Assembly (NCBI GenBank): GCA_008632985.1
Contig: QPGO01000237.1
Span: 1-64,000 of the forward strand
DNA from: Psammoneis japonica
Lineage: Eukaryota
DNA: 64,000 nt
Reading direction: 5' to 3'
Positions 1,061 through 64,000 of the stretch are shown here, in pieces. The number at the start of each line of letters is the position of its first letter. Positions within the stretch are counted from its first letter, which is position 1. The notes under the pieces are model-generated. The model searched no databases, was not told where the DNA came from, and was given only the letters and a program-made list of their open reading frames with translations. Position numbers and translations under genes: made by a program.

Positions 1061-1264
1061 TGTTTTAGTCTGTCCGTTGTTGGGTGGACAAAGTGACTGA
1101 CGTGTTTGTCGGTTCGGTTCTCGGAAAGTAAGATTTTGTGATGATGTCTTTGACATTCTGAGGACACATTGGTAGAAGACCGAGAGATCCACTTGAGGAT
1201 CGTCTCACATTTTTGAACAGATTACGTTTCATTGCTGATTTGTTCTGTTGACACACTTTTGGCA
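1061..1264 (+). repeat. 5' LTR of element A
   Basis: TG...CA termini; diverged direct copy of 9591-9791. Confidence 0.85.
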
Positions 1265-1301
1265 CTTCATCAGAGTCACACCCTGACTTGCCCAAGCAAT
1301 C

Positions 1302-2906
1302 ATGGTGTTTGCTGCAGCACAGACCACCTCGTTCTTCGAGGATGACAACCAAATGGGTCTGCCCAATGCAACTCAGTTGCAACCAGTGGTCGAACGTCTT
1401 GAGCAAGTTACAGACCTTGCTGACTTCGATGAAGATGGTCTCAATCAAGTTTTTGAGAACCTCAAATGCCCAGGGGGGGGGCACTGTCTCCCAGACCCCA
1501 ACCCTGGTGCAGCTGCTGGCGCTGTCATTCGGACACCAGCATTTGTCATTGGAGCCAAAAGCATGATGCATCTTGAGGTTGCCAGGCAGGCAGCACTGTG
1601 AGGCTGCTGGCTGCAAGCCATCTGCGGCCAACATGCATTGGAATCTGGTTCTCAAGAACTTCCAAGAGGCCTGGAAGGCACTCAAAGGCAGGAAGGACAA
1701 GGATGACCTGGAAGTCCCAAGGATCACCAAGTCACTGCCTGTTGTGAAGTGGACCAAAGCATTCCATGATCACCTGCAGCATGCAATCAGAGGTTGGGTC
1801 ACTCCACTCTCGCATGTCACCTGAGAGACCATCACAGTCGACCCGCGGCACCAGCACTTGCTGCAAATCAACTGCACTCAACAGCACATGGTTCCATTGA
1901 GGATGAGCTTGTGGCTCAGCCAAGCCATGCCCACCCACCATTTTGAGAAAAAACTCCTTGGGTGCACCATGCACTTGAAAAAGACACTCGCAGGACTTTG
2001 CATGCAGCCTCAGTCAAGCCCTTTCAGCGCAAGAAGGACAGAAGAGGGGCGTGGATTGCACTGACATTGCAGCATGCCGGCAAGGACAAGTGGGCAGCCA
2101 AACTCAAGAAGCAAGAGAATTTCATCCACACTCACAAGTGGAAAGCTCAATCAAACTTTTCTCTTGATCAGCTTGTTGCCCAGCATCGCAATGCCTTTGT
2201 CTCCATGCAACAGTGTGCAGACCATGTCACACACCAACTCCCAAACAAGTGTGCACATGTCACACATCTCCTGGATGCTGTCAAAATGTCCAATGTGCCT
2301 TGTCAGGCTGCCATGGCTTTAGTCCTCAGTGACACAGGACCAAATGGGAAATGAAGTGACTTCGAGGCCGCAGCCGCCCATCTTCTGCCCTGCGACCCTG
2401 TGGTGAAGAAGCACGCTGCAAAACATCCTCACACTGAAGTTTCTGCAATTGACTCCAGCACTGTCAAGTCTGGCATGGGCAGCATGGGCATGGAACTTTG
2501 GCACCACACTGTGACCAAATGCCAGAAACCAAACTCTGAACAGAAGGCTGAACTGAAGGAATGGCATGAGATTCAAGAGACTTTGTCTCTGAAGAAGGAC
2601 CTGAAGTCACCAGCTGTGGGGTGTGGCCGACACAAGAAGATCAAGAGAATGATTTCAGAAGCCATGGCCTCTGAGCCAGCTTCCCGTGGCAAGAAAGAGG
2701 AACACCCCAATCCTGAGTCCAACGACATAAAGGCCAGAGCCCACCTGCTCTCCCTTGTTCAGGTTGCATTGTCTGCTCCTCAGCCACTCCCCCCTCTGCC
2801 ACCTCCAACCCCCACTGCAGCCCCTGCTCAGGCAGCATTGGTCCAGTTCAAGCCACCCTCCATCTCATTGCAGTCCATTCTGCATCATGCCGGGGACAAG
2901 AAATGA
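1302..2906 (+). pseudogene. gag: copia gag pseudogene (element A), frameshifted
   Basis: Broken ORFs 1302-1601, 1573-1824, 1962-2354, 2400-2906 directly after the LTR and PBS; diatom copia gag-like motifs (EVPRITKSLPVVKW, HTHKWKAQSNFSL, DFEAAAAHLLPCDPV). Confidence 0.7.
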
Positions 2907-2924
2907 AAGGTGGGGATGGTGCTT

Positions 2925-4972
2925 CATTCCCATGGAAGTTCCGACACATGGCATCGCATGAAGGACCATTGCTGCGACCTCATGATCCATTGTGGAAAGG
3001 CTCAAGCTACAACATCATGCTTGAATGGGAGAATGGGGAGATCACGTCTGAACCCCTTGCCATCATTGCCAAGGACGATCCCATCACCTGTGCCATTTGT
3101 GCACACAAACACGGTTTGCTTGAGACTGGTGGCTGGAAACGTTTCCGGACTGTAGCTCTGCACCAGAAGAAGCTGTTCCGCATGGCCAATCAAGCCAAGT
3201 TGTTCTCCTTTCGTGCTGTGCCACAACACAAGTGCGGGCGTGAAGTGCCCCAGGACTGCAAGCATGCCTTGGCCCTTGATGAGCGCAATGGCAATCACAA
3301 GTGGGGAGACAGAACGGACCTCAAGATGACTCAGCTTGATGAGTGTGAGGTCTTCCATGACTGCGCACATTGCAAGGATTCCAGCACTCCACCAAGACAC
3401 AAGAAGATTTGGGTGCATCTCATCTGTGACATCAAACATGACAGACGGCACAAAGCAAGGCTTGTTGCCAATGGACACCTCACAGATTTGCCTGTGACAG
3501 TGTCTGTTCGTGAGCAGTGTCTCTCTGCGGCCTGTGAATGATGAACTTCCTAGCCGAACTCAATGAACTAAAGACTTGGGCTGCCAACATTGGGAATGCC
3601 TGTCTCAAAGCCATGATCAAGGAGAAACTGTACATTGCAGCAGGCCCCGAATTTGGTGAGCTGGAAGGACACATCCTTGTCATCCATAAGGCCTCACACG
3701 GGCTCTGCAGCTCTGGCCTTAGATGGCATGAACGCTTTGCCGATTGCTTGTGTGCTGAAGGCTTCTTCCCGTGCAAAGCCGAACCCGACATCTGGCTGTG
3801 TGGGAATGGTGACCACTGCCAGCACGTGGCAGTGTATGTGGATGACCTTGCCTTTGCCATGAAGGAACCCCAGGCTTTTGTGGACACTCTCATGGAGAAG
3901 CACAAGTTCAAGATCAAGGGCACTGGACTGTTGGAGTTCCATCTTGGTTGCGACTTCACCCACGATCCAGACGGCACCCTGTGCCTTGCCCCTGGCAAGT
4001 ACATTGAGGGCATGGTTGAAAACTGTGCATGCCTCTTTGGGGAGAAGCCTTGCACTGATGTGCTTTCACCCCTTGACAAGGGAGACCACCCTGAGCTTGA
4101 TGCCTCTGAATTACTCAAACTGGAGGGCATCCACCAATTCCAATCCTTGATTGGTTCCCTGCAATTGGCCGCATCTCTTGGTCGCATTGACATTGCTGCA
4201 GCTGTCATGTCCCTGTCTAGCTTCCATGCAGTGCCCCGTCAAGGCCACCTTGACCATGCCAAATGCATCTGCGGATTCCTCTCCAAGATGCATCATGGTG
4301 CCCTCTGAGTGCGCACCGAGGAGCCCAACTATTCGGACCTTCCCAAGCCTGTGTATGACTGGGCCCAATCTGTGCATGGGGAGGTAGAAGAGCTGCTCCC
4401 ACAAGATGCACCCGAGCCACTTGGCAAGTTCGTTCCCACGACACACTGCGTCGATGCAAACTTGTTCCATTGCATGCTCACCGGACGCTCTGTCACCGGC
4501 ATCCTTCATTTTCTCAATGAGTTTCCGGCTGATTGGTTCTCCAAGAAACAAGCAACAGTTGAGACTGCCATGCATGGATCTGAGTTTGTTGCCGCAAGGA
4601 CGTGCATTGAGCAGATCATTGATCTGCGCATCACTTTACATTGCCTTGGCATCCCCATTCATGAAACATGTTACATGTTCGGGGACAACAAGTTGGTTGT
4701 GGACAGTGCTACCATCCCGCACTCCAAGTTACACAAGTGACACACTGCCCTCTCATTCCATCATATGTGTGTGAGGCGATTGCTTCTGGTTTCCCCGAGT
4801 TTCATTTCATCGAAGGTTCCCGCAACCCTGCTGACATCCTCAGCAAGCACTGGGGTTACTCCCAGGTCTGGAACCTCCTTCATCCTCTAATGTTTTGGAA
4901 CTTCGATCCCGAGGCTTTCAACCAATCTGACCTTGAATCTATCGCTGTGGACCCCTCAAGCAAACTGGGGAG
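2925..4972 (+). pseudogene. pol: 3' half of an older family-B copia pol (chromo-like segment, RT, RNase H)
   Basis: Colinear with 21131-23160 on the minus strand (WKGSSYNIMLEWENGE, KARLVANG, VYVDDL, SKKQATVETA, NPADILSKHWG); most Tyr replaced by Cys/His; TGA stops. Confidence 0.92.
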
Positions 4973-5218
4973 TGACAGGATTTGAACAAGATTTTAGCTT
5001 GTCACACATGATTATGTGTGCTCTTAGTTCCGCGTGCGATGCGCGATGCAGTTTGCTTTCAAGCCACATGGCTCACAAGAACAACAACAGAAGTGCCAAT
5101 GTTAACGACACCAGTCTTTCAGCTCCTGCAACAGTCTCTGCATGGAGACTCATCGGCCATTTAGACAGCAGCAAGGAGTCATTGTTTTCTTCCACCCAGT
5201 CATTTTCAATTTCTGTCA
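4973..5218 (+). repeat. 3' LTR of the older family-B copia
   Basis: PPT GGGGAG then TGACAGGATTTGAAC...TTTCTGTCA; related to the element B LTRs. Confidence 0.85.
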
Positions 5219-5449
5219 GTCCGACAATGACTCAAGATTGCAGTCAACTGATGGTTGCAACTGGGAGGCGAGTGCACTGATGGAGCAATTGGCATTTGGT
5301 GGGGCATTGGCGGTGGCAGTGGTTGGCTAAGCAACAGGATTCTGGTTGGTGTCCTTTTCGGATGAAGTGGGCAGAGGTGCCAGAGAGCCAGCCCACACAA
5401 TGGAGGACACCTTGCACTCTTTCCTCCTCTTGGTGGAAGAGACAAACTT

Positions 5450-7000
5450 TGCCTTGGCTTCCCGGGAAAGGTGTGGATGCGTAAGATTGCGGACATGTGA
5501 TCGCAAATTACCAGGTTGTGGAACTTAACCAAATCAGTGTTCTTGCAGGAATGCTTGAAGGTGGAGTGGAGCTCACTTTCCACCAACTCTTTGCATTTTT
5601 GTGCCATGCCTTTTGCCCAGGCACGAGTGTCGATGCAAGTCTTGACATGTTCCAGATGCTTGGTGAGGATCTTCTTGGTGACCTTCCCATCCTTCAACCT
5701 CTGCTGCGCATTCATCAGGGTCAAAGGTCTGTCACAAAACAGCACAAACTGCTTCCTCTTTTCGCAGCCAGAAAAAACAATGGTGGACCAGCAACAAATG
5801 TTACAGCGCTCTTTGTCGATGTGAAGCAGAAAGCAACAGTCCATCATGGCAGCAGCAATGCTCAGGCATTGTGCAAAAAAATCCAACTTGGATGTGAAGC
5901 TGGTGATCCGCAGGAAGCAAGGGTCGTTGCCAAGTCGATTGTGCACTGTCAGCTCCCATAAATCTTCTGTGATTGCACAGAGATTTTTGCCAAATCAGGA
6001 AAGATTGGAGAAGGATTTGGCAAGCTTGCAGCACTCAAGAACATGCCTGCCATCTTTATGGTGAAAACACAACCAGCCACAACTTTTTACACAATGAAAG
6101 CCATCTTTGTGCCCAAGAGAATGGGCAACTGTGTCATTGACCATCAACACTTCCATGAAGAAATGGGAGGCTTGATTCTGGCAGTTACAATGAACAAAGG
6201 GGAGAGCCATGAGATCAGCAGAGGGAGTCCATTTAGAAGTCTCGAGAAAGTGCTGACAGATTTTTTTAAATTGAGCCTTGGTTGTGTGTGCACCACCAAC
6301 ACTGTTGGTGCATGCTTTGGCTTGGTCATCCAGCACAGAACCATCGCTTCCATCAAAAGAATCATCATCTCTGTTGTTTTCATCAGAAAAAGAAAAATCA
6401 CTGGCACAACCATCAAGGTCTCCACATGCAGATGGAATCCTGGCATGAGAATTGCCTTGGCTGGTCAAGTCATTGCCATCAGAGTCATCGTCTGAGCTGA
6501 CATTGAAGTCTGGAATGCCGCCAGGTGGGTTGTCCATCCCAGAAGACACTGATGACACAACATTGAATGTGGAGTTGCCCACTTCTTGATCAACAGGAGC
6601 ACCCTGCAAATCCGCCTTGGGCAAATTTGTGGAGAGTGCTGGAGAGTCACTGACATCAAAGACACACCATCAGAGAGGCTTGCTGCTGCATCAGAGGGTG
6701 ACAAAACATCAAGCAATGAACCGTCATGGTCCTGAGACGTGACAAAGCAAGCCGTGATGCTGGTCTCACATTTGGCACTGTCCTCAAATAAATCCAGGTG
6801 AGAAGAGAGACGTTGCTTTTGCTTGGGCATGACTTTGAGGTGGGGCATGATCGCAGCAGCGGAAGAGGCAAACCACCATGGTTGATCCTGGTAAAAACAG
6901 TGGAGGTGGAATGCTGCAAACTCCTTGTCACATCACTTTTGTGGTTCTGTGTTGATTCACCAAAAACAAAGGGGATTGGATCTGCAGATTACAAGTGGAA
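5450..7000 (-). pseudogene. Degenerate unknown ORF (acidic N-terminal half plus globular region), probably transposon-associated
   Basis: ORFs 5995-6624 and 5206-5946 are in the same frame, separated by a TGA; TA-depleted; no family recognised. Confidence 0.35.
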
Positions 7001-7267
7001 GGGACAAGTGCCCTGCTCACAGTTGGTCAGATAAATGGTGCAAATGGAACATCATGAGTCGATGGTGAGGATGGGGTTTGAGGGGGAAACAGAAAAAGGT
7101 GAAAATTTTGCTGAATGATTGACATTTGTCATGACAGAAATGCAGTGCTTTTGGCAAAAACGCCACACACAATGTGAAAACAAACATGTTTCAGTTGGAA
7201 TGAAATGCAATCATTCAGAGATCAGGGAGTGATGCAGCCATGTCACTTGGCATGTTGGCATTCATGT

Positions 7268-7397
7268 TGACAGAAATTGAAGATGACTGGTTGGAAATGA
7301 ACAACAACTTCTCACTGCTGTCTAAATGGCAGATGAGTCTCTGTGCAGAGACGGTCACAGGAGCTGAAAGACTGGTGTTGTTGACATCAAGTGCACA
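7268..7397 (-). repeat. Partial family-B LTR, inverted relative to 4973-5218
   Basis: TGACAGAAATTGAAGATGACTGG...CTGCTGTCTAAATGGCAGATGAGTCTC matches the reverse complement of 5110-5218. Confidence 0.8.
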
Positions 7398-7429
7398 TTG
7401 AATCACATGCATCTGGGAGCAATGAGTGC

Positions 7430-9400
7430 AAAATGCACCAATCAGGATGGATAAAATAAATAAAAATGTTGCACTCCCAATGAGTGAATGTCGATTTCAA
7501 TCTGGAGGGGTGTCAACCAATGTTTGTGTGCCTGCACATGCCACAAGATGGTGGAGTTCGACAACCTGTGACTCATGGCCCCTTCTGCAGGTCTCTGATG
7601 TGGATGATGAGCTGGCCTTCTGATGGTGGACACCTTGCACATTGCGCAAGCAAGATGTCACAGTGTCAGTGGTCAAGGCATGTGTGCGACGTGTCACACA
7701 CAAGTGGGGAGTCAACATTCCCAATGCCATTGAAGAAGCACTGGAACTCAATCACCAGAATGGCAACAAGCTGTGGGAGAATGCAGTTGCAAAGGAGATG
7801 TGCAATGTGGTTGTTGTGTGCAAGATTCTTGATGATGACACCCCAACTCCAGTCGGTTGGTCCAAGCAGTCTGGCCACTTGGTCTTTGATGTCAAGATGA
7901 CCATGGACAGGAGGCCAGATGGGTGCTTGTTGGACACAACACCTCCAGCACCAAGGGTTCCACATGTGCTGGGGCTGCATCCAGGGAGAGTGTCTAAATT
8001 GCACTGATGTGTGCTGCCCTGAACAACATTGATGTGATGGCAACCAACATCCAGAATGCGTGCTTGCAAGCTCTGTTATCTCAGAAGCACTGTGTCACAT
8101 GTGGCCCTGAATTTGGCATTGAGAATGTGGGCAAGCATGCTCTCATTTGCCATGCTTTGTATGGAGGCAAGTTGGCTGGGCATGACTTTGGGCATCACCT
8201 TCGTTGTGAGTGCATGTCATGCCTTGGATTCGAGCCTTGCAGGGCTGATCCTGATGCATGGATGCATGCAGCTTTTAAGGAAGATGGCACTGAGCACTGG
8301 GAGCATGTTGTGCATCTCGAACAATGCAGAAGATCCTGCGGAACAAGATTGGCAAGTGCTTTCTGCTGAAGAAGGCCTCAATTGGACCTCCCAGCTTGTG
8401 TCTGGGTGGCCACTTGCAAAAGGCAGAGCTTCAGAATGGAGTCAAGGCATGGGCTTTCAACTCTTCTCAGCACACCCAGGCAGTGGTCAAGAACATGGAG
8501 ACTTGCCTGGCATCGAAGGGCAAGAAGCTGCCAGCTGAGGCCACAACTCCTCTCAGCAGCTCATGTTGTCCTGAACTTGACACCAGCATGGAACTGTCAC
8601 TGGTGGATGCAGCCCACTGTCAGTTGCTCATTGGTGTCCTGCATTGGATGGTTGAGTTTGGGCACATCGACATCTGTCTTGAAGTGTCAATGTCCTTGCA
8701 CTTGGTGCTGCCATGAGAGGGACACCTCAAACAGGTGCACCATGTCTTCGTGCACCTCAGGAAGTGCCACAACATGGAGATGGTGTTTGATCCCAGTGAC
8801 CCTGTTGTTGATGAAGCACTGTTCACTCAACAGGACTGGACAACCTCTGAATTTGGCCTTGCTGCATGGGAGGAGATGCCTGCCAACATGCCTCAAGCCA
8901 GAGGTTGTGGCATGATCATACAAGCTTTTGTGGATGCGGACCATGCAGGCAACTCGATCACTCATCCTTTGTGTGCACTGGTTTTCTCATGTGTCTCAAC
9001 TCTTCCCCTGTGCACTGGATGTCTAAGAAGCAGACAAGCATCAAGATGAGCTCATTTGGGTCTGAGTTCACCAGCACGCAGCAATGCATGGAGCACATTT
9101 GTGGGCTTCGGCGCAAGCTGCGAATGATGGGAATTCCGGCCTTTGGACCAGCTTGTGTCATGGGGGACAACCAGTCTGTCCTGGCAAACACCTCCATTCC
9201 TGACTCAACATTGAAGAAGAAATGTCATGGTCTGACACACCACTTTGTCCGTGAGGGTGCAGCACATGACGAGTGGTAGATGGCACATGTCAACAACTGG
9301 AATCCCACCAATCTGCTGACCAAGGCACTTCCATCTGGGGAGAAACACAATCGGTTCATGGGAATGATGCTGCACTGTCTTGGTGGGAAGGTAGAGCAGG
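7430..9400 (+). pseudogene. pol: copia RT/RNase H pseudogene (element A)
   Basis: GHLVFDVKM, ATNIQNACLQA, ALYGGK, FVDADHAG, SKKQTSIKMSSFGSEF, GDNQSVL, HHFVREG motifs, fragmented. Confidence 0.9.
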
Positions 9401-9590
9401 CTGTGGTTGGCTGAACCACCTGCCAACACGGAGAGGGTTTTGTTTGGATTTCCCTGCCAGTGCCGTGGGTTTTTGTTTGGAGTTTCCCATTTGGTGGATG
9501 TTTGTTTGAAATTTACCATCACATGATGTGGATGAGTCCCTTTGTTGGCAATCTAGCTTGATGGCATGATCAAGTCTAGATTGAGGGGAG

Positions 9591-9791
9591 TGTTTTAGTC
9601 TGTCCGTTTTAGGACAGACAAAGTGACTGACGTGTTTGTTGGTTCGGTTCTTGGAAAGCAAGACTTTGTGATGATGTCTTTGACATTCTGAGGATGTCAG
9701 CAGAAGATCGAGAGATCAATTTGAGGATTGTTTCACAATTTGAATAGATCATGTTTTATCACTGACCTGTTCCACAGACACACTTTTGGCA
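9591..9791 (+). repeat. 3' LTR of element A
   Basis: Follows the PPT; direct repeat of 1061-1264. Confidence 0.85.
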
Positions 9792-10273
9792 ATTCTGCAC
9801 TTCATAATCACAGTGCTGTTGAAGACTGTAAATGCACAAATTGTGGGGGACACAAACACTGCAAAGAGATGCCATGGCCAGCATTCAAATCACAAGCACA
9901 CAGTTGGCATGTCAAACCATTGTCCATTTGTAACAGGAACTGACTGTCATCACGGTTGCCACTGTCAAGAACCAACCGTTGTCAAGGTCCCTGTTAGAAT
10001 CTCATGGATGAATGTTGCATGAAATCAGCCGAGAGTGACTGAACTGTTTGTCATGCAGAAATGATTTTTATGAAATCTTCTCCATGCTTGATGACTGTTT
10101 TCAATCAATTCTTGGTTCAGAGACTAGCTCTGAACCTCTCACAATGTCCAAAACACTCTTTTGTGCATGGCATTGACCTTTTCTAGTTTGCTCTAGCTAG
10201 CCTCACCATTCGGCACAGGATTGATCACCCTTCATTCCCTTTGGTTAGACCCACTTGAGTCTCATTTCCTGTC

Positions 10274-13200
10274 ATGGTTGCAATGCTCCCAGTTTGGTCC
10301 TTCAAGACCTCTTCCTCTGCCCCTGCTGCTTGCACCGCTCGTGCGATGCACGACTCCTCTCCGCCTTTGAGTGATGACCCCCAGGCCCATGGTTGGACAG
10401 CCATTGCTGCCAACAAGGCTGCTCTCCATGACATCAATTGCAATCAAGACACTGGAACATCCAACCAGCATGCTGGATTGCACTCGGCATCTTGCATGTC
10501 TGCTCATTGCATGAACACTCATGCACACCACTCATCTCCTTGCAAAGCTGCGTCTCCATGCACCGCTTGCCACTTTGGACCTGCAAAAGGTCTCACCAAG
10601 TCCAAGTCCAAGTCCAAGCCCCAGCCTTTTGCTTGGAAGCAGCACTCCCGCACTCCCAAGAACTCTGGTCCAAGTCATCATGATGACAAGGCCGTCCCTG
10701 ATGCCATCGAAGCCAACTGTCACACTCCAGGACCTTACATGCCGACTCATGATGAAATCCGTCATCACAAAGTCATCACAGACATGCACTCCACTCTCTT
10801 GAAATGTCTTGACATTGCTGTCAAGCACATCAACCTCTTCAATCATGATGTCAAGGGTCTCAACGTGCATCTCCATGCCGTCAGGGACCACAACACTCTC
10901 TTAGAATGCATTGTAGATGCAGTCCCCAACCCGGATGATCCTGAAAGTGTTAACAAGTTTTTTGATCTGGATCACAATGTCTGTGGCCATGCCATCAAAG
11001 ACATGATGACTGAAGCAGTTGAAGATGTTGCTGCCCCAGAAAAGCATGTTGATGCCATGGTCATGATTTGCAAAAAAGTTTCTGCAGGTCACTGTCCCAC
11101 CCCGCACACCCCCTCCAAAGGTCACGGAAACAATGGCCAACCTGATTCAAAACATCTCAAATGCAAGCAAATCAAGAAGCACTCATCACACAAGGTGTCT
11201 CCCAGCAAAGAGAACACTGCCCTTTGTTCCTGCTGTTGCTCTCATGGCATGTCTCAGACTGAGCCCTTCCCTCATCCACAAGTTGACTGCTGCTTTCACA
11301 AGGGACCCCATTTGCATTGCACTCACAACTCCTGTGCACCTTTGGATTGCACCCTCCATCCCCTGCCAACACCTGCACAGCTCCTCCACTGTTCTCACCC
11401 ATTCAAGTTGAAACTGTGAACTCTTCTGACTCTCAGTCAACCCATGAGCACTCAGATGCTGCCGCACCACTCTTTCCAGATGCCAACACCTCTTCCCACA
11501 TGACTGCAACTCGCCTTAATCATGCCCATGGACAACCAACAAGTTGAAGCACTGGCTGATTTACACTCATCTTACCCTTTGGAAACCACCGAACCTGAGA
11601 ACACGTGCTCACCTGCACCGAGTGCATCTGCACCTCCTCCCACATTGGTCGACACTGCTTTGAATGTCCAAACAACACTTGCAACCCCTGAACATCTCTC
11701 CAAAGTCCAAGAACCACTGCAACCTTTCTTTGATCATGAGAATGCAAGCCTTGACAACCTTCAATCTACTGTTGATGACCTCAAGTCTGTGTTCGAAGCC
11801 ACTCTCCACTGCTCCCCTCATTGCAAAGCTGCTGCGCTGGCTCTCAGCTAATTTTGCAAAATGATGCAACAAGCTGAAGTGCTGCACCTGGATCTGCTTT
11901 TTAATGTGGTCCTGACTCCATCCTCAGTGCTTAAGTCCACCTCACCTTCTTTCTCTGCCGCCTCAATCACCTCTGCAGGAAGTGTCGCTGGGTGGCACCC
12001 CAGGTGCAATGGCACATTCTTCCAAATCTCTGGCAAACTCCTTGATGAAACAGGCCTCCTGTTTGAAGTTCAGCACACTCAAGCACAACCAAAACCCATG
12101 CACCCATTGACAGCACTTCTGCTCCTTCCTGAACAAGCTGTGTGGTCTCTTTGCAGCTTTCCCAGAGTGCAAAGGCTTTGTGGACAATTTTCCCTCTGAG
12201 AGCCACTGTGCACTTTGCCACATGCAGCTGACAGCGCTCCATGCTCCCTTTCATGGACATGTGTCAATGCCACTTTTCTCAGGCAGATGTTGCCGATGGT
12301 GTCATTGACTCTAGCAAACAAGCTGTTCAAGAACTCCAACTTGGTTGTGCTCCCATCACCCAGGAGAACACATCCCATGCTCGAAACGACTGCCAACAAG
12401 TCTTCCATCATTCCACAGAGTCAGCCTCTGGCTTCATCCAATGCTTTGAAAAAAAAATGCCGGCACTGCAAGAATGCTGGCCTGCCTGTCAAGACAAATG
12501 CTGAACTGAGCATCCATTTCACAAAGCAAATGGGCAGCCATGCCCGCTGCAATGCTGCCATCAAACAATTCAAATCCAAGTTCTGGACTGCCAAACACGC
12601 ACCCCACACCACACCTCTTCACTTCAAGAACATTCGCTCTACCTTCTGTGACATTGACAAGCAAAATCACAATCAACAGCACTGTAAATGCCAATCTCAA
12701 GGTGCTCACCAAAACACCCCTGACAACCATGCTCCCTGGTTCCATGATCTTTCTGAGCAGTTCTTTGGCAACCACCACATGTCCATGATGCTTGGCTGCA
12801 ATCCATCCATTCTGAACTCAAAAACCTCATCATTGACAATGATGCTTTCACTCTCCATGAATGCCCACATCCAGATGACAAAGTCATTTTCACTGCTCTC
12901 ACCCTCCATGCCAAACAATGTTCTGATGGCTTTTTGGACAAACTCAAGGCATGACACTGCGCCTGTGGTGACCAACAACAATGTTCCCCTCCTGATGATG
13001 ACAACTGGTCTGCAAACGCATCATCCTGAGCCATCAAACCATTCCTTGTCTTTGCTGCCAATGCCAAGCAATGTGTCAAAAATGGTGATTTTGTTGGTGC
13101 ATGCCTTCAAGCTCTCGCTCGCAGCCATCTTTTTGTGTGCTTTGACCACATCTTAAAGGAACACTTCCCGGCGTTCCACTGCCACTCAAGAAGGGCATGC

Positions 13201-20849: not shown

Positions 20850-20854
20850 GCGAG

Positions 20855-51155: not shown

Positions 51156-51607
51156 TGTTAATCAGACAACATTGACAGGGCCTTCATCAAGACTCACACT
51201 CGTCATCCTTGTCTTGTGGATGAGAAGGGAAAAGAAGAACAACACGCAAAAAATGGCGGGAAATTGGCAAACATTACATTGTGTTCCAGATTTGGATGAT
51301 TCTTGTGGGCAGGACGTGTCTGCATTTTGATTTTTTATCTGGCATTCACAATGAACATTGCACTTTTTATTTGCTGTCAAAATGCAGGACATTGTCTCCG
51401 TTGAAATGCAATGACAGCCATGTCAAAAAGCAAGTTGGACTGTTCGTTGTTACACGTGAACACATTTTCAAATTTCAATGTTGCTGACAATAATTTGTGC
51501 AATGTCATGGAGAAAAATAGAGTGCCTGGCTGTCTCAACACGACCCAAAAGACGGTTGCACTGTCAAACAGTGCCACTCCTCTCATTGTTGCCGTGAAAA
51601 GATCAAG

Positions 51608-52849: not shown

Positions 52850-53213
52850 CAAGAAAATGTGTGCACAGTTAACATGGCACTCGGTCATTGCACTGCAGAC
52901 GTAAGGAGGGATTGACTTGGCCGATGAAATGATTTTCTTGTTTAAAACAATGTTTACGAAAATTAACAAACCAAGGATTGTGTGGCAATGCAATCACGCA
53001 TTGGCATGTGGCAACAAGGTGGAGGCAGAAACAGTGATGTGGACACAGTGAAAAATGGCATGCGCAATTCTTAATGAGTCATTGCAATGTTGGCACACCA
53101 AACTTGTGACCAGAGGTTGGCCTTTCATCACATGACAACAATTTTTTGCAACATTTTGATGAATTGTCATCATGTAAATCTGCACATTTTTTAACATTTC
53201 GTGCACTCTGATG

Positions 53214-54570: not shown

Positions 54571-54573
54571 GTG

Positions 54574-54634
54574 GACAGCCTGCAGATGCAGGAAAGTGGC
54601 ATCATTGGCGGCCACTGCAGGGATGCCTGCTGCA
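54574..54634 (-). repeat. Outer remnant of the 5' LTR of element E
   Basis: GACAGCC...CAGGAAAGTGGCATCATTGGCGGCCAC...GATGCCTGCTGCA matches 13956-14016 and ends at the same base. Confidence 0.65.
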
Positions 54635-54638
54635 CAAG

Positions 54639-55003
54639 GCCATCACCACCAAATGCCCTGGTCTGCACTTCCACTTGGCTGTCTGCTCCATCCTCTGCCT
54701 TGCCTGCAACACTCATGCCAACATCCTCTGGGCCACTTGCAAACTCACCAAGGCTTGCACTGCACAAGGTGTGAAAGACTTTGATGCACTCATTCATCTC
54801 TTTGGCTGTCTTTGGAAGCATCAAGACTTGGCAATCAAGTTTTACTCTGATCCGTTCGAGAGCCCCATGTTTGCAATTTGTGAAGTTCACAACATCAATT
54901 GTTCTGAACTTGTTGTTTTCAAAAATGCGAGCTGGCAAGACTGCCCGGACACCACAAGATCAACTGTTGGATTTATGATTTTCTTCAATGGGGCAATGGT
55001 GAA
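54639..55003 (+). pseudogene. pol: Right part of copia X (RT C-terminus and RNase H start)
   Basis: AVCSILCLACNTHANIL (degenerate GSLLYL..TRPDI), NASWQDCPDTTRSTVG; in frame with 13645. Confidence 0.8.
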
Positions 55004-55454
55004 TGACAGGATTTGAACAGGATTCAGGTGCGCGCAAAATGTCGCGCACTGTTTAGTTTACCACGCACAGTTTTGTGTGCTTTAGTTCCACGCGTTCGCG
55101 CGCGATGTAGTTTGCTTTCGAGCCACAAGGCTCACAAGAATGACAACAGTGGCCCGATTGTGTCAACTTGCACGTCTTTTGGCTCCTGTGATGGTCTCTG
55201 AGCGGAGACTCATCTGCTGTTTAGACAGCAGCAAGGAGTCATTGTTTGAATTCTTGCCATTTGCCTTCAATTTCTGTCAGATTAACAGTCTTGCTCATTG
55301 TCAACCCATTGAGCAACCGCCATCATCGTCGTTGATTTACCAACGACGCTTTTCAATTCTGCGTGGACCTCCGTGTATGTTCTACGTGCACATCGGCAAG
55401 TCTACGCGCATTTAACACCAGGCATCGGCTGGAATTTAACGTCACCGTCAAATC
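55004..55454 (+). repeat. Family-B 5' LTR (55004-55279) plus PBS and ~175 bp of leader, truncated
   Basis: Matches the reverse complement of 27961-27510. Confidence 0.92.
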
Positions 55455-55722
55455 TGGCTTGTCATGTGTAACTGCGAAATGGTCATTTGTGCAACTACGA
55501 ACCGTTGCAACAATTGACAAATTAAGACAAAATGGGTCATTTCGGTCATTGCACAAATGTTTGAAAATTTGGATAAGAAGAAACCAGGCATGAATGTAAG
55601 ATGAGTCATGTTTGTTTTGCGTGCAGAAACCACCAAAAATGATTTGTGATGATTTTGTGACCCAGTGAGCCAAACGCATCCGGCCGGGAAAAGAACCATC
55701 CCATGCTCCAAATGCTGTTCAA

Positions 55723-58341
55723 GTGGAGCAAGTCAAAAAGGGCGGCACGCCCAATTCTTCAACCAACACGGCATCTCGTTCGGCCGAAGCCGACGATTCT
55801 AGCCCTGCTCTTGATTCGCACCCTGGAGATTTGTTCCCCTCCTTCGCAGCCGCCCGACAATTTCTAGGCCCAGACGCTAAAGCCGACCGCAATGACAACA
55901 ATTTGAAGAAGAAGAAAGATCCTTCTGTTTCTGTGGTCAGCGAATTTAGCTGCAAAAAACCGGGTTGCAGCTTCAAAGCAAACATTGTCGCGGCACCGTC
56001 GACTGGCCCCTGCAAGTTGGAAGTGACATGTGGCCATGATGGTCACAATCCCCGAACTTGGCGGGAGCACATTCTCGCAAAAGGCTCAAGGGGTCTTCCT
56101 CCTGTGGTAAAACTGCATGTGCAGCTCATGATGGAAAGCGATCCGAACGCACCGCCGAAGGACACACAGAGAAAAACTGTGGACCACTTTTCAAATTCGG
56201 AAGATCCGTCTGCATCCGAGTTGTTCGAAATGCAGGATCTCCGCGACAAGGTTTCTAACAAGATTTGCCACTGCATCACACAGAGACAAAGAGAGGTGGC
56301 AACAACGGCACACCCTGCGTCCGAACACAAGACCTGGTTTCGTACTGTCGGAAATGGGGCTTGCGGATTCCAGAGGGTTTCAATGCAGAACCCGTTTCTT
56401 CGGAAGTCCACATGAAAGAAAAGGCCAAATGGCTGCACGCGAGGGGTGTAAGAGGCAAGCGTCAGAGCAAAAATGGGATGCCACACACGGACATGTTCTG
56501 CTTGCTCCAGCCGGATGACTTGCCCAGCAAAGTCAAGCAACGGTTGACCGAACTACAAGGCAAGTCGGAAGCCAGGTTCCGAAAAAGAAAAGGTCCGAAG
56601 GGTCCCTTCCTGGGAGCGAGGGACAACACGGTTGTTTTCTCCTCCCTCGGTCTGTTGCGAAACATCTGTGATTGTCGCAACCTGGAGTGCCGTGTGGTTG
56701 GCACAATAGATGGAACTCATGGAGTCGTCTGCAACGACTTTGTTCTCATCGCATTCGGCATGAGCGACTTTTCGAAACGAGAGAAAACTGGAAAGCATTA
56801 CTGCTCCAGCACGTTCAAGCCAATTTGCCACTGCTTGACCACCGGAGAGCACGAAGAAGGTGCCGTGTTGATGTTCTGTGCTTTGCAAAAGGCGGCGTCG
56901 GACTTGTTTGGGACAACCGACTTGGAGTTTGCAGGCGGACTTTGCTCGGATCACTCGAAAGCCTTCTCGAACGCTTTTAAGCTGTTGCACCCTGACAATC
57001 CCAGAGGCACGTGCTATCCTCACATTCTCCGAAAGTTCCGCACAGATTTCATGAGGCAAGGAAACGGACAATGCCAGAAGTACGTGAAGGACACGACTTT
57101 CCTGTCCAGAGTTGCCATCCATGAGGTGAGGATGCTCCACCGGTGCAAAACTGTAGAGTTGTTCCATGCCATGTCTGGCATGGTGCTCAAGTCATGGAGG
57201 AAGGCGGGCGAAACCAAATTGGCGGATGTGTTTGCAGAACAGTACATCAACGACGACGACTTCATGAACTGGCACTACACGTCTTTCGGGGAGCCCGGTT
57301 TGGTTCCACAGAACAACTCTCACGAGAGGCAAGTCGTTCGTTGTTGCCCAGGACAGTTTTGATCATTTAGGTCCATGCTCACACATGATGTTTCACAGGA
57401 TGAATCTCAAAATGAAGGGTTCGCAATCCATCAACGGCTTGATTCCCCTTGGCGTGACCCTCTCCCGTGCGCTGAATGCGTCCCTGCCATCCATGGTCCA
57501 CACCCACACACTAGAGCGGTCCACTGTTTCACGGAGGCATGGGATGTTGGACGAAGACAAAGCGCTGACCAACGATGTGTTGGTAGACATCGGCCGACTA
57601 GACACAAAATGCGACATTGCAACGTACGAAGGCGGGCATCTCGTCAACACTCAAGACTGCGTTGGGGACACAATTGACAAAACTCAAATCATGGACTGCC
57701 ACAACGCGTTGAAAGGGTTCCCCCATGGAGAATCTGCTTCGGACCACAAGTCGCTGCACAAACTGACCACTGGTTTGTGCAAAGTCACAGTGACAGAGTC
57801 GGCCGATGGTACGAAACTCTTCGTCGGAGACTGCGAAGAGTTCTACAAAACAATGAAGTGCCCACATGCCGCCATCCTGCAACATGCAGATGTCATCCAA
57901 TCACGGTCAACCAAGCTTCCCACCAGAAAACGCGCCCGCCAAGAGAGAATCGACCAAATGAAGATTGACACCAAAGCTCGCGAAGAAGAAGCATCCAAGA
58001 AGCGACGCAAGGCTACACCATCGAAGAATGGCCATGCCGGCCAAACGACTCCAGCAGTTAGACCACCCATCATTAGCCCCGCGGGATGGCCCATTGTTTT
58101 GTCTGCTCCTTCTGCTTTGTTTCAAACGTCGGCCATGCTGTTTCAACCGACTGCTCTGCAAGGCATCCCGTTAGATTATTCTGGAGCGTTCCCCGGGACC
58201 GTTCCACCGCCGTTGCCAACGCACAATGCATTTAGGTCCAACAAAGCCCACCTCGGGGAAAGTTGTTGCCTTTGTGTTGTTTATCAATGCAGAGTTCCGG
58301 GGTGTCTTTGTGCGTGTCACCATCAGCAGGAAAGAGCTTAA
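55723..58341 (+). pseudogene. Mutator-like (MULE) transposase with SWIM-type zinc finger
   Basis: C..C..H.H N-terminal finger; IDGTH, CSDHS, CYPH, and NNSHER-MN after splicing intron 57329-57398; C....KCPH SWIM motif; frameshift near 56330. Confidence 0.85.
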
Positions 58342-60559
58342 AGGGTTGGCACACCGGAGGAATGTCAACATGATTGTTTTTGTTGCCGGAGAAAGTGGCA
58401 GTGATGCAAACGCAAGCACTAGTGACAAATGTGTTTCACAATCAAACCATTGATGCCGGCGACCCGACATTGAGATCAGTTCAAATGGTTCCCCACAAAT
58501 CCATGAACATCTTTCGTCACAACAAGAGGAGGCAGCACGGATCCTTTTTCCTCCGACAAATGCCGCACGTACGCCGTTGGCTCTTTCTCGGCAACTGATT
58601 CTCGACACACCAACGCCACTGCTTTCATGCTGGAGATGTTTTCCTTCCGGTTCGTGAGCGGCAACACAAGCACAAATTCCCTTGTTCGCCAGAGATGCTT
58701 CCACAACCAAGAACGCCCATGGCCGTAGTTCGCATTAAAGAGCAAGTGCAACAAAAAAGCCGTTGACGCCTCCGCTTTGCTTTGGTGCGATGCACGGCAT
58801 TTACTTTTCAAACCTGCAGGAGGCAAACGATGATGATGAAGAGCATCCATTCCCCCAACAACTGTGCTTCGCCGAATGACATTGTAATCTATCGTACAGA
58901 GGCAACCACCATCTCTGGTTCACTGGACGTTCATCGCCGAGCGCAATTCCTTGTCGCTCTTCATTCCCAGGCAATCAACTGCCAGGAACCTCATGACATT
59001 GGGCAATGGAAGATGGTGGTTTTTGTTTAGCAAAGTCTGAACCACACCAATGGGATCCGAAATGATTTTGTCAGAGTGCAGTTTTGATTCTTCCAACTTG
59101 TTTCGTTCCTTGTCAGACGTCTTTGCTTTAACCGTAAACTCCAAGTTCTTCGTCGTGGACAACCTTGCAACAAAAGAACAGGATTTGGTGGATGCATTGA
59201 AGGCATCAACCCATTCCGGACGACAGTCATTATCGGACGCACTCGGTTGGGCAAAATTTTTCCTTACATGCTTTTCCGCAGGAGACAAGGCCGCAGGGTG
59301 CTGGACAATAATTGGGACTTTCCCTGGACCGCACTTGCACTCGAACAGATTGCAATTTGCAATGTAACTGTCACTGCCACCCGCGACAGTGTCGGGACTG
59401 TCCTTTGTGAACAAACACATGCACTCCTCGCCTTCCAGCGTTGTAATGTCTAGTTCCGCCGCAACGGCCGCAACCACCTGACACAGCTGATCCTTTCGTT
59501 CGAGGTTTATGCCCATCTGTCGGAATTTCTTTATGGATTGTTCGCTTCCGGGCAAATGCGAATCGACAATTCCCAGATCATGCTGCTTGTGGTTGCCAAC
59601 ATGGCAGAGGATCAACTTTTGGGTTTTCAACTTGTCACTGGATTGAAACGAATTAGAGACTTCGTTCACCAACTTTAGATGCTTCGTAGACGTCATCTCT
59701 TTGCCTCGATGCAAAGAGATGATTTGATAAAAGCTGCAAATGGATCTGTTTTGCGTTGCATCCAAAACTGGTTGACTGTTGGTGCTTTGGTGTCGAATGC
59801 CGCCAACCCCGGCAGATCCGTCAAGCTGGGCGTTGCCGTCTACACTGGGACAGTGCATTCCAAGCCACCATCGAAATCCATTGGAAAATCCATTTGGCAA
59901 CAGATTGGATCTAACTTTCCTCCATTCATCCAAATGCTGAGTTCCAAATCGACAAAAACGTTCCATGTTGTTTGTTTGAGTAGTTGCAGCAACACAAATG
60001 TCGGCAAGCAGGCATTCTGACATTCGTTGACGCTGCTCGTCATGCAAATGCATTGACATCTTGTCAACAATGTCAAACACCGGGGACAAGCCCACCAGGG
60101 GATTCAAGTGGATGCAGTCTCGGCGGCATCCTTCGGCAGGTGGACAATGTGTGGCAGGTGTGATTGTGCGATGCGGCAATGGCACGTTGTTGCAGCGATC
60201 GACGATCAGCTTGACAGCCTTCTCCATCTCCCACATTCGATGGCAGTGGTTCGTGTTGGATCCCTTCCAAAACACAGTCACCGGAAACAACACATTTGTG
60301 TGCAACACTTCACAACACATGGTTGTCCACACACTCATGATCGGACTCCATTTCTTGCAACCAAAGCCGTCTGGGTGATGGAGCAGGTGCTCGGTCAGTG
60401 TCATGCTGCAGTCCAATTTGAATGTCAGTGGAACAATCGACATGCACTCGGTGAATGCGTCTTCACGAATTTGTTGGGCAAAATCGTCAAGGCGCTTGGG
60501 GTACAATGATTCGTCGATGACTGGAATCCCGGGGAAAGCTTTTTCCCATGCATCCTTAA

Positions 60560-61006
60560 CACCACATCCACGGATTCACCAGGCAAAATTGGCAAAAGTC
60601 GGGTGTGGATAAAAGTGTGCATTTGGTCAAAATCGATTGTTGAGTGCAAATGGTGGTGTCTTTAGGGTCCCTTTAGTGAGCCGAACACGCACATTTCTCA
60701 TTTGACCATCACAGGTCTGTCTTGTGGGGGGTGTCAAAACGTCGTGCTTTGACGCGTCTCGAGGATTAATCGTCACATAATGCATTCAGCCATTGAGGCC
60801 ACACAAAATTGAAAATTCACACATTAAAGCACGACGTTTTGACGTCCCCCGTAAGACGACCTGTGATGGTCAGATAAGAAATGTGCATGATCAGCTCACT
60901 AAAGGGACCCTAAAGATACCACCATTTGCACTCAACAATCGATTTTGACCAAATGCACACTTTTTGCTGTACCCGAGTGTTGCCTGGTGAATCCGTGGAT
61001 GCGGTG
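60560..61006. mobile_element. Foldback MITE with ~190-bp TIRs and TTAA TSD (piggyBac-like)
   Basis: CACC...GGTG ends; arms ~60560-60752 and ~60824-61006; TTAA at 60556-60559 and 61007-61010. Confidence 0.9.
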
Positions 61007-62307
61007 TTAAACAACTGACCTAGCTTGGCCATTGGAGGTGCACAGCGCTTGGTGCCTTTGTTGAACTGGGGCACCGATGTGCCGTTTTCTCCTCTCACTC
61101 CATTGTGGTTGCCACTGGATCCAACCGTCACTTCACGATTTCCTCGTTCTCCGGTGACGGGCACCTGACATCGACCTGGACAACCGGGTTTCTCTCGAAG
61201 GCAAAAATCATGCCAAACTTGCTTTAGACCCAGTGAGCGGATGCAAGAACACCATTCATCGTCATCCACAACTGCCGCCACTCGTTGATTGCCACACACT
61301 ACGGAATGTGGTCGACCCGGTTCCAAAGTTTTTACATCGACACCCAGACAATTGGCCTCCGACAGGTGGCGAGTTCGGTCCTCGATTCTAACCTCACCGT
61401 GGGGATTGCAGTGAGGCTTGGTCATTGCAGCTAGTCCAGTGTGCCCACGTGGAAACAGCAAAGCCATGTCAGGATCTGGAAGAATGAAGTGCTCACCCGG
61501 ATGCTTCGCTTTGAGTGCAGTGGAGGGTGGGTCCTTGTTTCGCATCTGCATGGAAAACAGTGCTTTCCGAAAATGCGCTGTGTCTTCGTCGCAACAAGCA
61601 ACGGATGTGTCCTCACAGGTGACGTTGGGCTTTTCGGAGGAAGAGTAATTGATCACTTGGCAGCACCTTCTGAAATTTGCATCATGAGATTCCAACAGAG
61701 ATTGATGTCCCTGTCATTGGGCCTGCAACACAGGAGGTTCAGATTCTTCTGAGTCGGTAGAATCGTTGGAGTCGTCATCCACCTCCAGAGGATCAAATGT
61801 GCAAGACTCGTTGTCACCAAAAAAGGATGACCCGGCATGCACAGGAGGGCTAAACCGTCCTTCTAAAATGGGCGAGGAAGAGGCGGATGCAGAATTCTGG
61901 CGTTGGCTAGGTGGGCTGCCATTGCATCTGGTGGACAACGAGGAAATTGAGGTTGTAGACTCGCACCCAGAAGCAGACACATCAATTCGACAACTGCGCT
62001 TTGAACGGTGACTTGACGTAAAGGCACCAGAGGAAGATCGCTTGTTTCCAGCAGGAGGGGGTGGGAGGTCATGCCTTGACGGCAGAGTGTTCCTTAAAGT
62101 GCGTGTGTTGCAATTACGATGGCTCGGGACGGACCTGGCAGACCTGACAGGAGTAGATGTGGTCGATGGAACCGAACGAGAAGTGGCGGAGGAGCCACTG
62201 GATGATCAACCAGAAATGGTGGCATGTTGTTTTTGGACGTCGGGCTTCGGAGACTGATGGAAACGACGAGAACCATTCGTTGGGCCATCTAGCGACGGGG
62301 AGCCACC

Positions 62308-62850
62308 CCAGCGAGAACGACCATTGTGTCCTGTGGGATCAGTTGCTGTCACGGGAGAACCAGCGGCAGATGAGCCAGCGGACACAAGGGAAGCAGCAGC
62401 AGCATGCCCAGAAATGGCGGGAGCCACATGTTGGTTGCTCAAGCGGGAACGACCATTGTGTCCTGCAGGATTGGTCACCATCACGGGAGAGCCGGCGGCA
62501 GAAGAGCTGGCGGCCGCCAGGGAAGCAGCAGCAGCATGCCCAGAAATGGCGGGAGCCACGTGTCAGTCACTCAAGCGGGAATGACCATTGTGTCCTGTAG
62601 GACCAGTTGCTGTCACGGGAGAACCGGCGGCAGATGGGCCAGCGGATGCCAGGGAAGCAGCAGCAGCATGCCTGGAAATGGCGGGAGCCACGTGTCGGTC
62701 ACTCCAGCGAGAACGACGATGGGATGATGCAGAATCACCAGCTGTTGCGGGAAAATCATTGGCAGATGGGCCAGCAGAAGCAGTGGAACCAGCAGCAGCA
62801 GAACCAGCAGTTGCCTTGACTTGGTTGGGGTCACTCCAACGAGAACGACG
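62308..62850. repeat. In-frame 132-bp (44-aa) tandem repeat, ~3-4 copies
   Basis: GACCATTGTGTCCTG at 62319, 62451, 62583. Confidence 0.9.
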
Positions 62851-64000
62851 ATGAAGTGAGGGTGCTTTCGTGTTCGTCGAGGGGGAGCCAGCGGCAGACA
62901 GGCTTGTGCGGCCAAAAGAAGCAGCAGGACTTGAAACAAAAGCTGGACCCGGAGGTTGGTTCTTTAGCGGTTGGCCCCATCGAGAAAGCCGCTTGGAGTG
63001 ATTGACACGGGTGGGGGCACCACAGCAGTCACTCATTGCACTGCACCAAACGTCAAAACAGGAACAATGCAAAAAAATACAAAGAGAAAGGATTGGCAGA
63101 AACAAGAAAAAGAAATAGAATGGGCAAAGGAGAGAGCAACGAAAACAAGAAACAACAGAGAAAACAAAAAGAGAGAGCAAGCAAAAATGCAGGCAGCAAG
63201 AAAAAAGAGAGAACAAAGAAGAGAGAGGAAGCAAAAAAGACGAAACAAAGAAGAGAGAGGAAGCAAAAATACAGACAACAAGAAGCAAGAGGAAAGAAAG
63301 AAAGAAGAAAGAGCAAAAAATGACAGATGCAGAGCTGCAACGGCGCCAACCGCACAAAAGCATTGATGGCGCCGAATGGGAAAACACAGTGAAAAAAAAA
63401 AGGAAAGAAAGGCAACAATGAAAGAGGAGCAGTCCTTTTGGCAAAGGACCATTGGATGTGGTGCATCACACCTGAGTAGACTAGAAGAGAGAAGGAAACA
63501 ACAAACAACAAAAGCAACAAGAAAGGTCGAGTTGTGCAGATACGGTGTGCCGTGTGGATGCAGAGTGATGTTTTTCGTCTACGGCAAAACACTGCTGGTT
63601 CGTGGTAGTAGGTAGTACATGCAATCGCCAACGGAAAATCGCCAACGGACATCGCCAACGGAAACCATTATATTCATGAATGTTGTTTTAGGCGAACAAA
63701 AGCGTTAACATCCGTTAAAAGGATGTAAGCAAAATTATGTAGGAATATGTACCAGAAGAATAATTAAAGGAAAAAAATGTTCAGTATTATGACACTAAAA
63801 CAAAATAAAGATAATTATTTAAAAGATAAATTATCCATCATGAACATTTTTACACAAATTGTATAAATACACTGGCATTCCTCGCCAAAATGACCGTTGT
63901 CTAATCGGTTTTCGGGCATGTAGTCATTTTATACATTTTGTGTAACTAAGCCACCCGTGGATACACAGAATTAGCGTCTCCTTACCGCTGGATATCTGGA

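Follow-up and report, generated by a model that had tools for sequence, protein, structure and literature searches.

Mutation-accumulation lines of the alga Bigelowiella natans carry mutations in integrated nucleocytoplasmic large DNA virus (NCLDV) and virophage DNA of which 230 out of 231 are A>G or T>C (Mettrop et al. 2026, bioRxiv 10.64898/2026.01.13.699255). According to the same preprint, all GC-biased mutations of the viral regions lie at the dinucleotide TpA, the rate is about 1000 times background, with bursts in only some of the lines and in Illumina data, coding sequences low in TpA are enriched for reverse transcriptase (RT) and DDE domains, and an ADAT2-like deaminase is proposed as the enzyme (bioRxiv 10.64898/2026.01.13.699255). 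No other report of TA>TG/CA hypermutation was found in the literature searches besides this preprint, and a GC-raising mutator acting only at TpA and aimed at foreign DNA is so far a matter of one preprint and one alga. Here we describe a stretch of DNA of 64,000 nucleotides (the window), made up almost wholly of mobile DNA, in which TpA is depleted and TpG and CpA are in surplus. We propose, with a probability of roughly three in four, that it carries the footprint of an A:T>G:C process confined to TpA on integrated mobile DNA, which would be enzymatic, aimed at silenced chromatin and of the same kind as the process in B. natans. A first-pass annotation of the window, made from the sequence, had stated that no system with this spectrum was described; the preprint reports exactly this spectrum.

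Similar to the B. natans process, the change in the window is A:T>G:C at TpA only, yielding TpG and CpA, its action is patchy as the other is episodic, and low TpA is found together with high CpA and TpG. The targets in B. natans are integrated viruses, whereas here they are long terminal repeat (LTR) retroelements and three kinds of DNA transposons. The ratio of observed to expected TpA (O/E) is 0.02-0.2 over tens of kilobases here, compared with 0.45 for the NCLDV region. Furthermore, the window also shows CpG decay, and the process is known here as a long-term footprint and there as de novo events. The window probably derives from an organism other than B. natans, because the matches to its Copia element reach at most 72% identity and the copy numbers of its transposable elements (TEs) are high. 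No protein more than 72% identical to this Copia was found in a search of 5.8 billion clusters, and the TE families of the window are present at hundreds to thousands of copies, judged from the depth of contigs of the public run X1.

Fungal repeat-induced point mutation (RIP) converts CpA to TpA and enriches TpA, as stated in the cited part of the RIPCAL paper (PMC2621366), and the passages concerned of a Rhizoctonia paper deal with ordinary RIP indices (PMC7884421). RIP and the process in the window both consist of dinucleotide-specific transitions at the DNA level, which bring missense and nonsense changes into integrated mobile elements. However, the direction is the reverse, the window being depleted in TpA. 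RIP is also triggered by duplication, whereas in the window a segment of very high copy number has escaped and DNA at single-copy depth shows saturated loss.

The ADAR and APOBEC systems resemble the process in the window as deaminase hypermutation against foreign nucleic acid, and ADARs prefer a 5' U. They act on RNA or single-stranded cDNA and on one strand, whereas here integrated double-stranded DNA is changed on both strands and DNA transposons are included. APOBEC enzymes also produce C>U (G>A on the sense strand), in contrast to A>G and T>C at TpA. The decay of 5-methylcytosine (5mC) is present in the window and likewise has TG and CA as products, with 16 of 32 conserved arginines (Arg) of one element changed to His, Cys or stop, but it cannot remove TpA or convert tyrosine (Tyr) codons to cysteine (Cys) or histidine (His) codons. 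In dinoflagellates, 5-hydroxymethyluracil (5hmU) prefers T in TA and TC, is enriched in repeats and overlaps 5mC, according to the cited passages of PMC11572971. This is a TpA-preferring thymine mark on repeats and conceivably an upstream step for T>C. It differs in that TpC, also preferred there, is undepleted in the window, and the passages cited describe the mark and not a mutational footprint (PMC11572971). Dinoflagellate genomes are given as 1-250 Gbp in the cited part of PMC11453091, and the X1 contigs, with 140.7 Mb, lie far below.

TpA loss in the mobile DNA of the window

TpA was observed 1153 times in the whole window against 4211 expected from base composition, an O/E of 0.27. The values for CG, TG and CA were 0.64, 1.48 and 1.51, and the remaining 12 dinucleotides lay within 0.87-1.18, none of them being depleted. 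TC (1.11) and GA (1.09) are among these, so TpC is undepleted. Between 1061 and 63100 the count was 1057 TA against 4052 expected (0.26), with TG 1.48, CA 1.53 and CG 0.63. The lowest stretch, 1501-2500, contains a single TA where 56 are expected, and over the 7 kb from 6001 to 13000 the O/E is 0.11 for TA, 0.21 for CG, 1.92 for TG and 1.68 for CA. Values of TA O/E of at least 0.6 are confined to the 1-kb bins starting at 1, 26501-27001, 43001-44501 and 63001. The TpA loss noted in the first-pass annotation is thus confirmed, but its statement that almost all transposon DNA is stripped of TpA goes too far, since 43001-45500 (0.80) and 26501-27685 (0.94) are spared.

Eighty metagenome loci encoding relatives of the Copia element of the window were used as an outside yardstick. 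TA O/E was at least 0.43 in 78 of the 80 loci, and 0.69-0.97 in the eight closest (L001-L008). Five of these closest relatives (L003-L007) showed TA 0.91-0.97, CG 0.86-1.09 and TG/CA 1.08-1.17. Since the Copia relatives outside have ordinary TA, a low TA content is not an inherited trait of the family. The surplus of TG and CA in the oldest DNA of the window would correspond approximately to the summed loss of TA and CG.

The window encodes LTR retroelements and DNA transposon remnants, and wherever depleted DNA could be annotated, it derives from TEs. The features are as follows (coordinates, strand, description).

1061-63100, no strand: TpA-depleted, TG/CA-rich mobile span with spared exceptions (1-kb O/E profile)
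2717-5221, plus: old degraded Ty1/Copia (RVT_2, E 3.8e-12), with both TpA loss and CpG decay
7699-9324, plus: further, heavily decayed remnant of Copia pol (tblastn with the consensus of homologues, E 2e-23 to 4e-12)
15173-16194, plus: Harbinger/PIF-like transposase remnant (DDE_Tnp_4, E 6.4e-4, below the Pfam cut-off)
18631-20854, plus: older Copia, first half (gag_pre-integrs, E 5.9e-9; Pol_BBD, E 6e-5)
20855-27961, minus: young near-intact Copia (RVT_2, E 5.5e-27; target-site duplication GCGAG)
27962-29000 (end approximate), plus: older Copia, second half with RT (RVT_2, E 1.1e-13; active-site motif CVDS at 28648-28659)
32989-38342, minus: Ty3/Gypsy element (RVT_1, RT_RNaseH and rve matches; LTRs 32989-33150 and 38182-38342)
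41014-47296, no strand: LTR element with undepleted inner part (LTRs 41014-41366 and 46930-47296)
43001-45500, minus: spared high-copy TE-derived segment (weak RT_RNaseH match at 43845-44156 with E 4.8e-5, slightly short of the cut-off)
47490-51161, minus: Plavaka/KDZ-like DNA transposase in two open reading frames (ORFs) (Atlas neighbours and the homologue P0158 carry PF18759)
53231-55031, no strand: depleted stretch matched exactly by public-run contigs (TA O/E 0.09-0.24)
56259-58341, plus: MULE-like transposase remnant (267 homologues at E<=0.001; PF10551 MULE in one of six tested)

The older Copia is split by the nested insertion of the young one. Its first half has a Tyr content of 0.2% over 535 amino acids and a TA O/E of 0.07-0.29, and its second half a TA O/E of 0.12-0.19. 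The Copia remnant at 7699-9324, with the motif NACL at 8055, shows TA O/E of 0.07-0.20. The LTRs of the young Copia (3' LTR, 20855-21130; 5' LTR, 27686-27961) are 96.7% identical. One frameshift separates its gag-integrase and RT parts, so the element is near-intact and not intact; its pol is spread over two frames that overlap (ORFs 22808-26863 and 21078-23060, overlap region 23048-23099). Three X1 contigs join 41009 to 47297, at the borders of the LTR element with the undepleted inner part.

Scans of the window detected no Rfam families and no tRNAs, and no recognisable host gene was found in the window, including its TA-normal stretches. The Atlas matches come from a mixture of taxa (Oomycota, Haptophyta, Streptophyta, Chlorophyta and Basidiomycota). 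For 40001-50000, no matching RNA data sets were listed.

Direction, specificity and rate of the change

The LTRs of one element are identical at integration. Site classes were counted in the three LTR pairs of the window and in one further repeat pair, and the sites that differ were 23 of 53 in the TA class, 15 of 58 in the CpG class and 5 of 857 in the remainder (TA-class against other, odds ratio 131, p 2e-26). The per-site divergence is 0.43 at TA-class sites versus 0.006 at other sites. A further 14 TG<>CA doubles were left out of the class counts, as their ancestor may be TA or CG, and the inverted repeat 60556-61010 and two tandem arrays were left out as evidence because of their many transversions.

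The three LTR pairs contain no transversions, and their differences comprise 19 TA-class, 9 CpG-type, 9 doubles and 1 other. Nine differences belong to the young Copia, seven of them with TA in the 5' LTR and TG or CA in the 3' LTR, one CpG-type and one other. In the Ty3/Gypsy pair there are 4 TA-type changes, 4 TG<>CA doubles and 4 CpG-type changes; in the LTR element at 41014-47296 there are 8 TA-type changes, 5 doubles and 4 CpG-type changes, with no other difference in either pair. Because the LTRs within one element differ at TA sites, the change took place after insertion, on chromosomal DNA. At the TA sites of the 5' LTR of the young Copia, the 3' LTR carries 4 TG and 3 CA, which agrees with the earlier observation that A>G and T>C occur on the same strand; as both products stand on one strand, both DNA strands are affected. 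The process was also described from the start as acting on chromosomal double-stranded DNA and not as editing during reverse transcription, and in support of this the Harbinger, Plavaka and MULE transposases are affected as well. Taken together, the data show an A:T>G:C transition process confined to TpA on integrated double-stranded DNA of retroelements and DNA transposons alike. To judge by the class counts, the pace of change at TA-class sites appears to be about 75-130 times that of other sites and a little above that of CpG decay.

Among five aligned copies of the Copia LTR, four sites show TA, TG and CA all together. TG and CA are each one step from TA and two steps apart, which argues for TA as the ancestral state. 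The LTR sequences given by the first-pass annotation as an example of TG in one copy and CA in the other were located at 16727 (TTAGCACCTTGTGC) and at 29986 (TTAGTGCCTTGCAC). Comparison of the young Copia with the degraded copy at 2717-5221, to which it is 75% identical at the DNA level, is in the same direction. Its 43 TA read TG in 14 cases and CA in 9 in the degraded copy, and just 10 of its 345 TG/CA read TA there. Older copies contain less TA, and in old ones the loss is near completion.

Homologues from outside the window give the direction independently of the paralogous copies. Tyr codons are TAY, Cys codons TGY and His codons CAY; Tyr replaced by Cys or His at conserved columns indicates TA>TG and TA>CA, both on the sense strand. 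For Copia, the reference was a consensus of 60 external pol homologues, restricted to columns with at least 70% agreement. Among 24 conserved Tyr, the degraded Copia has 10 Cys, 5 His and 5 Tyr kept, while 336 of the 401 conserved columns for other residues (Tyr and Arg excluded) are identical (Fisher p 1e-10 for Tyr against these). Its 32 conserved Arg are represented by 12 Arg, 7 His, 6 Cys and 3 stop codons. The young Copia keeps 17 of 27 conserved Tyr, with 4 His and 2 Cys, and keeps Arg in 31 of 32 columns.

The DNA transposons show the same replacements. The Plavaka-like transposase has 4 Cys, 2 His and 2 Tyr at 10 majority-Tyr columns, and the 18 Tyr of its closest homologue, P0154, correspond to 6 Cys, 5 His and 5 Tyr in the window, with no Cys or His of P0154 matched by Tyr in the window. 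Seven majority-Tyr columns of the MULE-like transposase carry 3 Tyr, 2 Cys, 1 His and 1 Phe, and one column with Tyr in 38 of 38 homologues is Cys in the window. Counted on the alignment, the 8 Tyr of P0159, the closest homologue of the Harbinger-like transposase, correspond to 3 Cys, 1 His, 3 Tyr and 1 Asp. External homologues and LTR pairs agree with the direction first proposed, and we conclude from these alignments that the change runs from TA to TG/CA.

Of the peptide motifs cited earlier as examples of this conversion, each one searched for was found in the window. HIDD, the RT motif of the Ty3/Gypsy element, is encoded at 35429-35440 on the minus strand, and CVDS at 28648-28659 on the plus strand. 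NAHL (22479-22490, minus) and NACL (3595-3606, plus) are also present, as are CGSE (21501-21512, minus) and HGSE (4573-4584, plus). LICD at 3419-3430 (plus) has LVYD at 22656-22667 (minus) as its counterpart.

CpG decay has affected this DNA as well. Old copies have a CG O/E of 0.15-0.6, 87 of the 155 CpG of the young Copia read TG or CA in the degraded copy, and TpA and CpG depletion correlate over 1-kb bins (Spearman 0.70). In the young Copia, however, CpG O/E is 0.95-0.98, while its body (21131-26500) has TA at 0.34 with CG at 0.95. With TA lost and CpG and Arg intact in this element, TpA loss precedes CpG loss and does not require it. Loss of Tyr (6 of 27) with Arg kept (31 of 32) also means that CpG decay by itself is not a sufficient explanation, as the first-pass annotation had argued. 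A 5mC-type decay of CpG to TpG/CpA appears, from this comparison of copies, to be a second and slower process in the same DNA.

Within depleted bins, 2.5-2.8% of TA survive where the 5' neighbour is A or the 3' neighbour is T, versus 4.5-6.5% with other flanks. Only three ATAT are left, and the flank effect is about twofold, to which native word usage could contribute. A mild preference of the process for ATA/TAT is possible. There is no sign of long one-strand tracts in the variance of the TG-versus-CA imbalance, which for bins of 250, 500 and 1000 bases was 1.50, 1.89 and 2.56 in the window and 1.34, 1.63 and 2.19 in the 80 control loci.

Spared segments, copy number and base accuracy

The segment 43001-45500 lies inside an otherwise depleted LTR element and has a GC content of 0.40, a TA O/E of 0.80 and a CG O/E of 1.25. 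Over 43336-45336 the summed depth of X1 contigs is 5443-9631, roughly 100-200 times the single-copy depth, which is about 35-67 in this run. In contrast, the unannotated stretch 53341-54007 is found at a depth of 66, thus single-copy, and has TA at about 0.1 and CG at 0.56-0.63. The MULE-like remnant and its neighbours (56009-60000) have an X1 depth of 81-231, TA of 0.14-0.27 and CG of 0.80-0.92. As the high-copy segment is spared and the stretch at single-copy depth is depleted, depletion does not follow copy number, and the earlier description of the process as targeted at repeats is not supported. Depletion may follow age or chromatin state. For the segment at 43001-45500, the explanation is either a very recent spread or an escape from decay at TpA and CpG alike.

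In the young Copia, the first 1.2 kb at the 5' side (26501-27685), comprising the leader and the start of gag, has a TA O/E of 0.94 versus 0.34 in the body. All 7 TA-type changes between the LTRs of this element are in the 3' LTR (binomial p 0.016). The region spared in this copy is hit in another one, at 55004-55455, where 14 TA>TG/CA and no reverse changes were found. The action therefore appears patchy within and between copies. Candidate causes for the spared 5' part are patchy action, promoter-proximal protection and conversion from an unmutated copy. Taken together, the spared segments indicate that the trigger is neither repetition nor TE identity alone. The LTR-like sequence at 54675-55341 resembles the LTR and leader of the Copia, and its X1 contig depth sums to 163,894; copies or solo LTRs of this family thus seem to number in the thousands.

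The bases themselves were checked against the Logan contigs of run X1 over 40001-60000, with every bin covered. Contigs at a depth of 35-51 showed no differences to 53231-55031 and 59351-60000. On 53231-55031, three records (467, 932 and 447 letters; depth 35-43) matched without mismatches or gaps. Such long exact matches at a depth of 35-51 speak against systematic miscalls. Of the raw-read confirmation on two platforms proposed at first, this provides the agreement of the contigs but not a second platform. Paralogous X1 pieces differ from the window by 407 transitions versus 74 transversions, and among the matches listed 36 transitions include 20 TA<>TG/CA and 11 of CpG type.

The signature is also present in two unrelated marine metagenome contigs, whose Copia is about 68% identical to the window element at the DNA level. 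In L039 (1-1168), TA O/E is 0.06, 14 conserved Tyr include 1 Cys and 6 His replacements, and Arg is kept in 13 of 16 columns. In L009 (1-2561), the corresponding values are TA 0.33, 2 Cys and 5 His among 24 conserved Tyr, and Arg kept in 28 of 31. Low TpA paired with Tyr>Cys/His, with Arg and other residues kept, was not found in the other 78 metagenome loci.

Proposed mechanism and alternative explanations

The proposal is that an enzyme carries out the change and that its target is silenced chromatin, foreign or mobile, rather than sequence repetition. Most likely, a polynucleotide deaminase would convert the adenine of 5'-TA to hypoxanthine, which is read as G; candidates are an ADAT2/TadA-like enzyme or a different deaminase from the same superfamily. 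Elements would be inactivated by Tyr>Cys/His replacements, including the RT active-site Tyr, and by Arg>stop changes through the CpG process.

The main rival is the decay of an epigenetic mark at TpA in silenced repeats, either 5-hydroxymethyl- or 5-formyluracil made by a TET/JBP dioxygenase or a modified adenine, which reading or repair would sometimes turn into C or G; in that case, TpA loss would relate to this mark as CpG loss relates to 5mC. 5-Formyluracil mispairs with G. Two marks placed on shared silenced DNA would produce the correlation of TpA and CpG depletion noted above, and dinoflagellate 5hmU provides a precedent at TA and TC, repeat-enriched and overlapping 5mC, in the passages cited (PMC11572971). 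However, the undepleted TpC of the window (TC 1.11, GA 1.09) does not match the TA-and-TC preference of 5hmU, the young Copia lost TpA without losing CpG, and the bursts in some B. natans lines fit an activity that is switched on better than a slow decay. We regard mark decay as unlikely, although it is the alternative to be taken most seriously. Editing of retroelement transcripts by an ADAR/ADAT-like enzyme (A>I after U), fixed by reverse transcription, would suit TA through the 5' U preference of ADARs, as considered in the Discussion of the B. natans preprint, and also the spared 5' leader and depleted body of the young Copia. It is very improbable, since DNA transposons are affected too, the LTRs within each of the three elements differ at TA sites and so changed after integration, and the sense strand shows both products, with Tyr>Cys and Tyr>His at 10 and 5 in the degraded Copia and 2 and 4 in the young one.

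An artefact of assembly or base calling deserves equally little credence. A palindromic modified TpA, miscalled TG on one strand and CA on the other, would yield a mixture of TG and CA, and the platforms are unrecorded. Nevertheless, X1 contigs with a k-mer depth of 35-51 match both compared stretches without differences, indels and 23% divergence are found in the depleted copies too, L039 and L009 share the Tyr>Cys/His signature, and the B. natans process was seen in Illumina data. Least credible of all is the opposite direction, either a RIP-like CpA/TpG>TpA change or CpG decay alone on DNA that was TA-poor from the beginning. Simple parsimony, applied to the LTR alignment alone, would allow TG>TA at the seven sites with TA in the 5' LTR and TG or CA in the 3' LTR and in most older copies. 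These sites show both TG and CA, though, which are one step from TA and two apart, the conserved Tyr of the homologues polarise the change as TA>TG/CA, and older copies hold less TA, the reverse of RIP, while outside relatives are not TA-poor.

Several points weigh against a TpA-directed enzymatic process aimed at mobile chromatin. Two stretches are spared, namely the high-copy TE-derived segment at 43001-45500 and the 5' 1.2 kb of the young element. Specificity for mobile DNA is derived from contrasts within the window and from outside relatives, as the window holds no single-copy host gene. The low TA of the young Copia body could be inherited from a master copy, and the 14 TG<>CA doubles could derive from CG as well as from TA. 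Run X1 may be the sample from which the window itself was assembled, and its platform is unrecorded, so that it does not stand for a second platform. As TpA is self-complementary, enzymes acting by A>G and by T>C are indistinguishable by sequence, and the 64-kb window contains no deaminase or other candidate gene. Finally, 'defence' is our interpretation of the role, and the changes may instead be a by-product.

The TpA-directed process in the window is an independent case of the kind described in B. natans, and adds LTR retroelements and three kinds of DNA transposons to the integrated viruses as targets. It indicates that elements are changed once they have been inserted into the chromosome, that the change can near completion and that copy number is not the trigger. 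It also hints at a natural enzyme for A:T to G:C editing of double-stranded DNA within a set sequence context. A broader proposal is that TpA-directed editing of integrated DNA is a conserved enzymatic genome defence in several distant aquatic protist lineages and not special to B. natans and its viruses. It would be aimed by chromatin state or small RNAs rather than sequence homology, silence retroelements and DNA transposons alike, outpace 5mC decay and depend on an adenine deaminase acting on DNA, or else on a thymine oxidase specific for TpA; L039 and L009 would come from further hosts. This wider proposal is tentative, and we consider it somewhat short of an even chance. If the process is general, it would be a protist counterpart to RIP and to the APOBEC/ADAR defences, the dating of transposons by LTR divergence would be biased, and ORFs would be inflated through the erasure of TAA and TAG.

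The window contains 347 TAA and 299 TAG versus 1418 TGA. Due to the loss of TAA and TAG, 38 open frames of at least 200 codons are present, in all six frames. Many of the long open frames are opposite to, or overlap, real pol genes, and gene callers would over-predict here. The two tandem arrays, at 30066-30928 and 62301-62853, show self-BLAST offsets of about 183 and about 132 bases, respectively, and many TG<>CA doubles between their units, together with many transversions.

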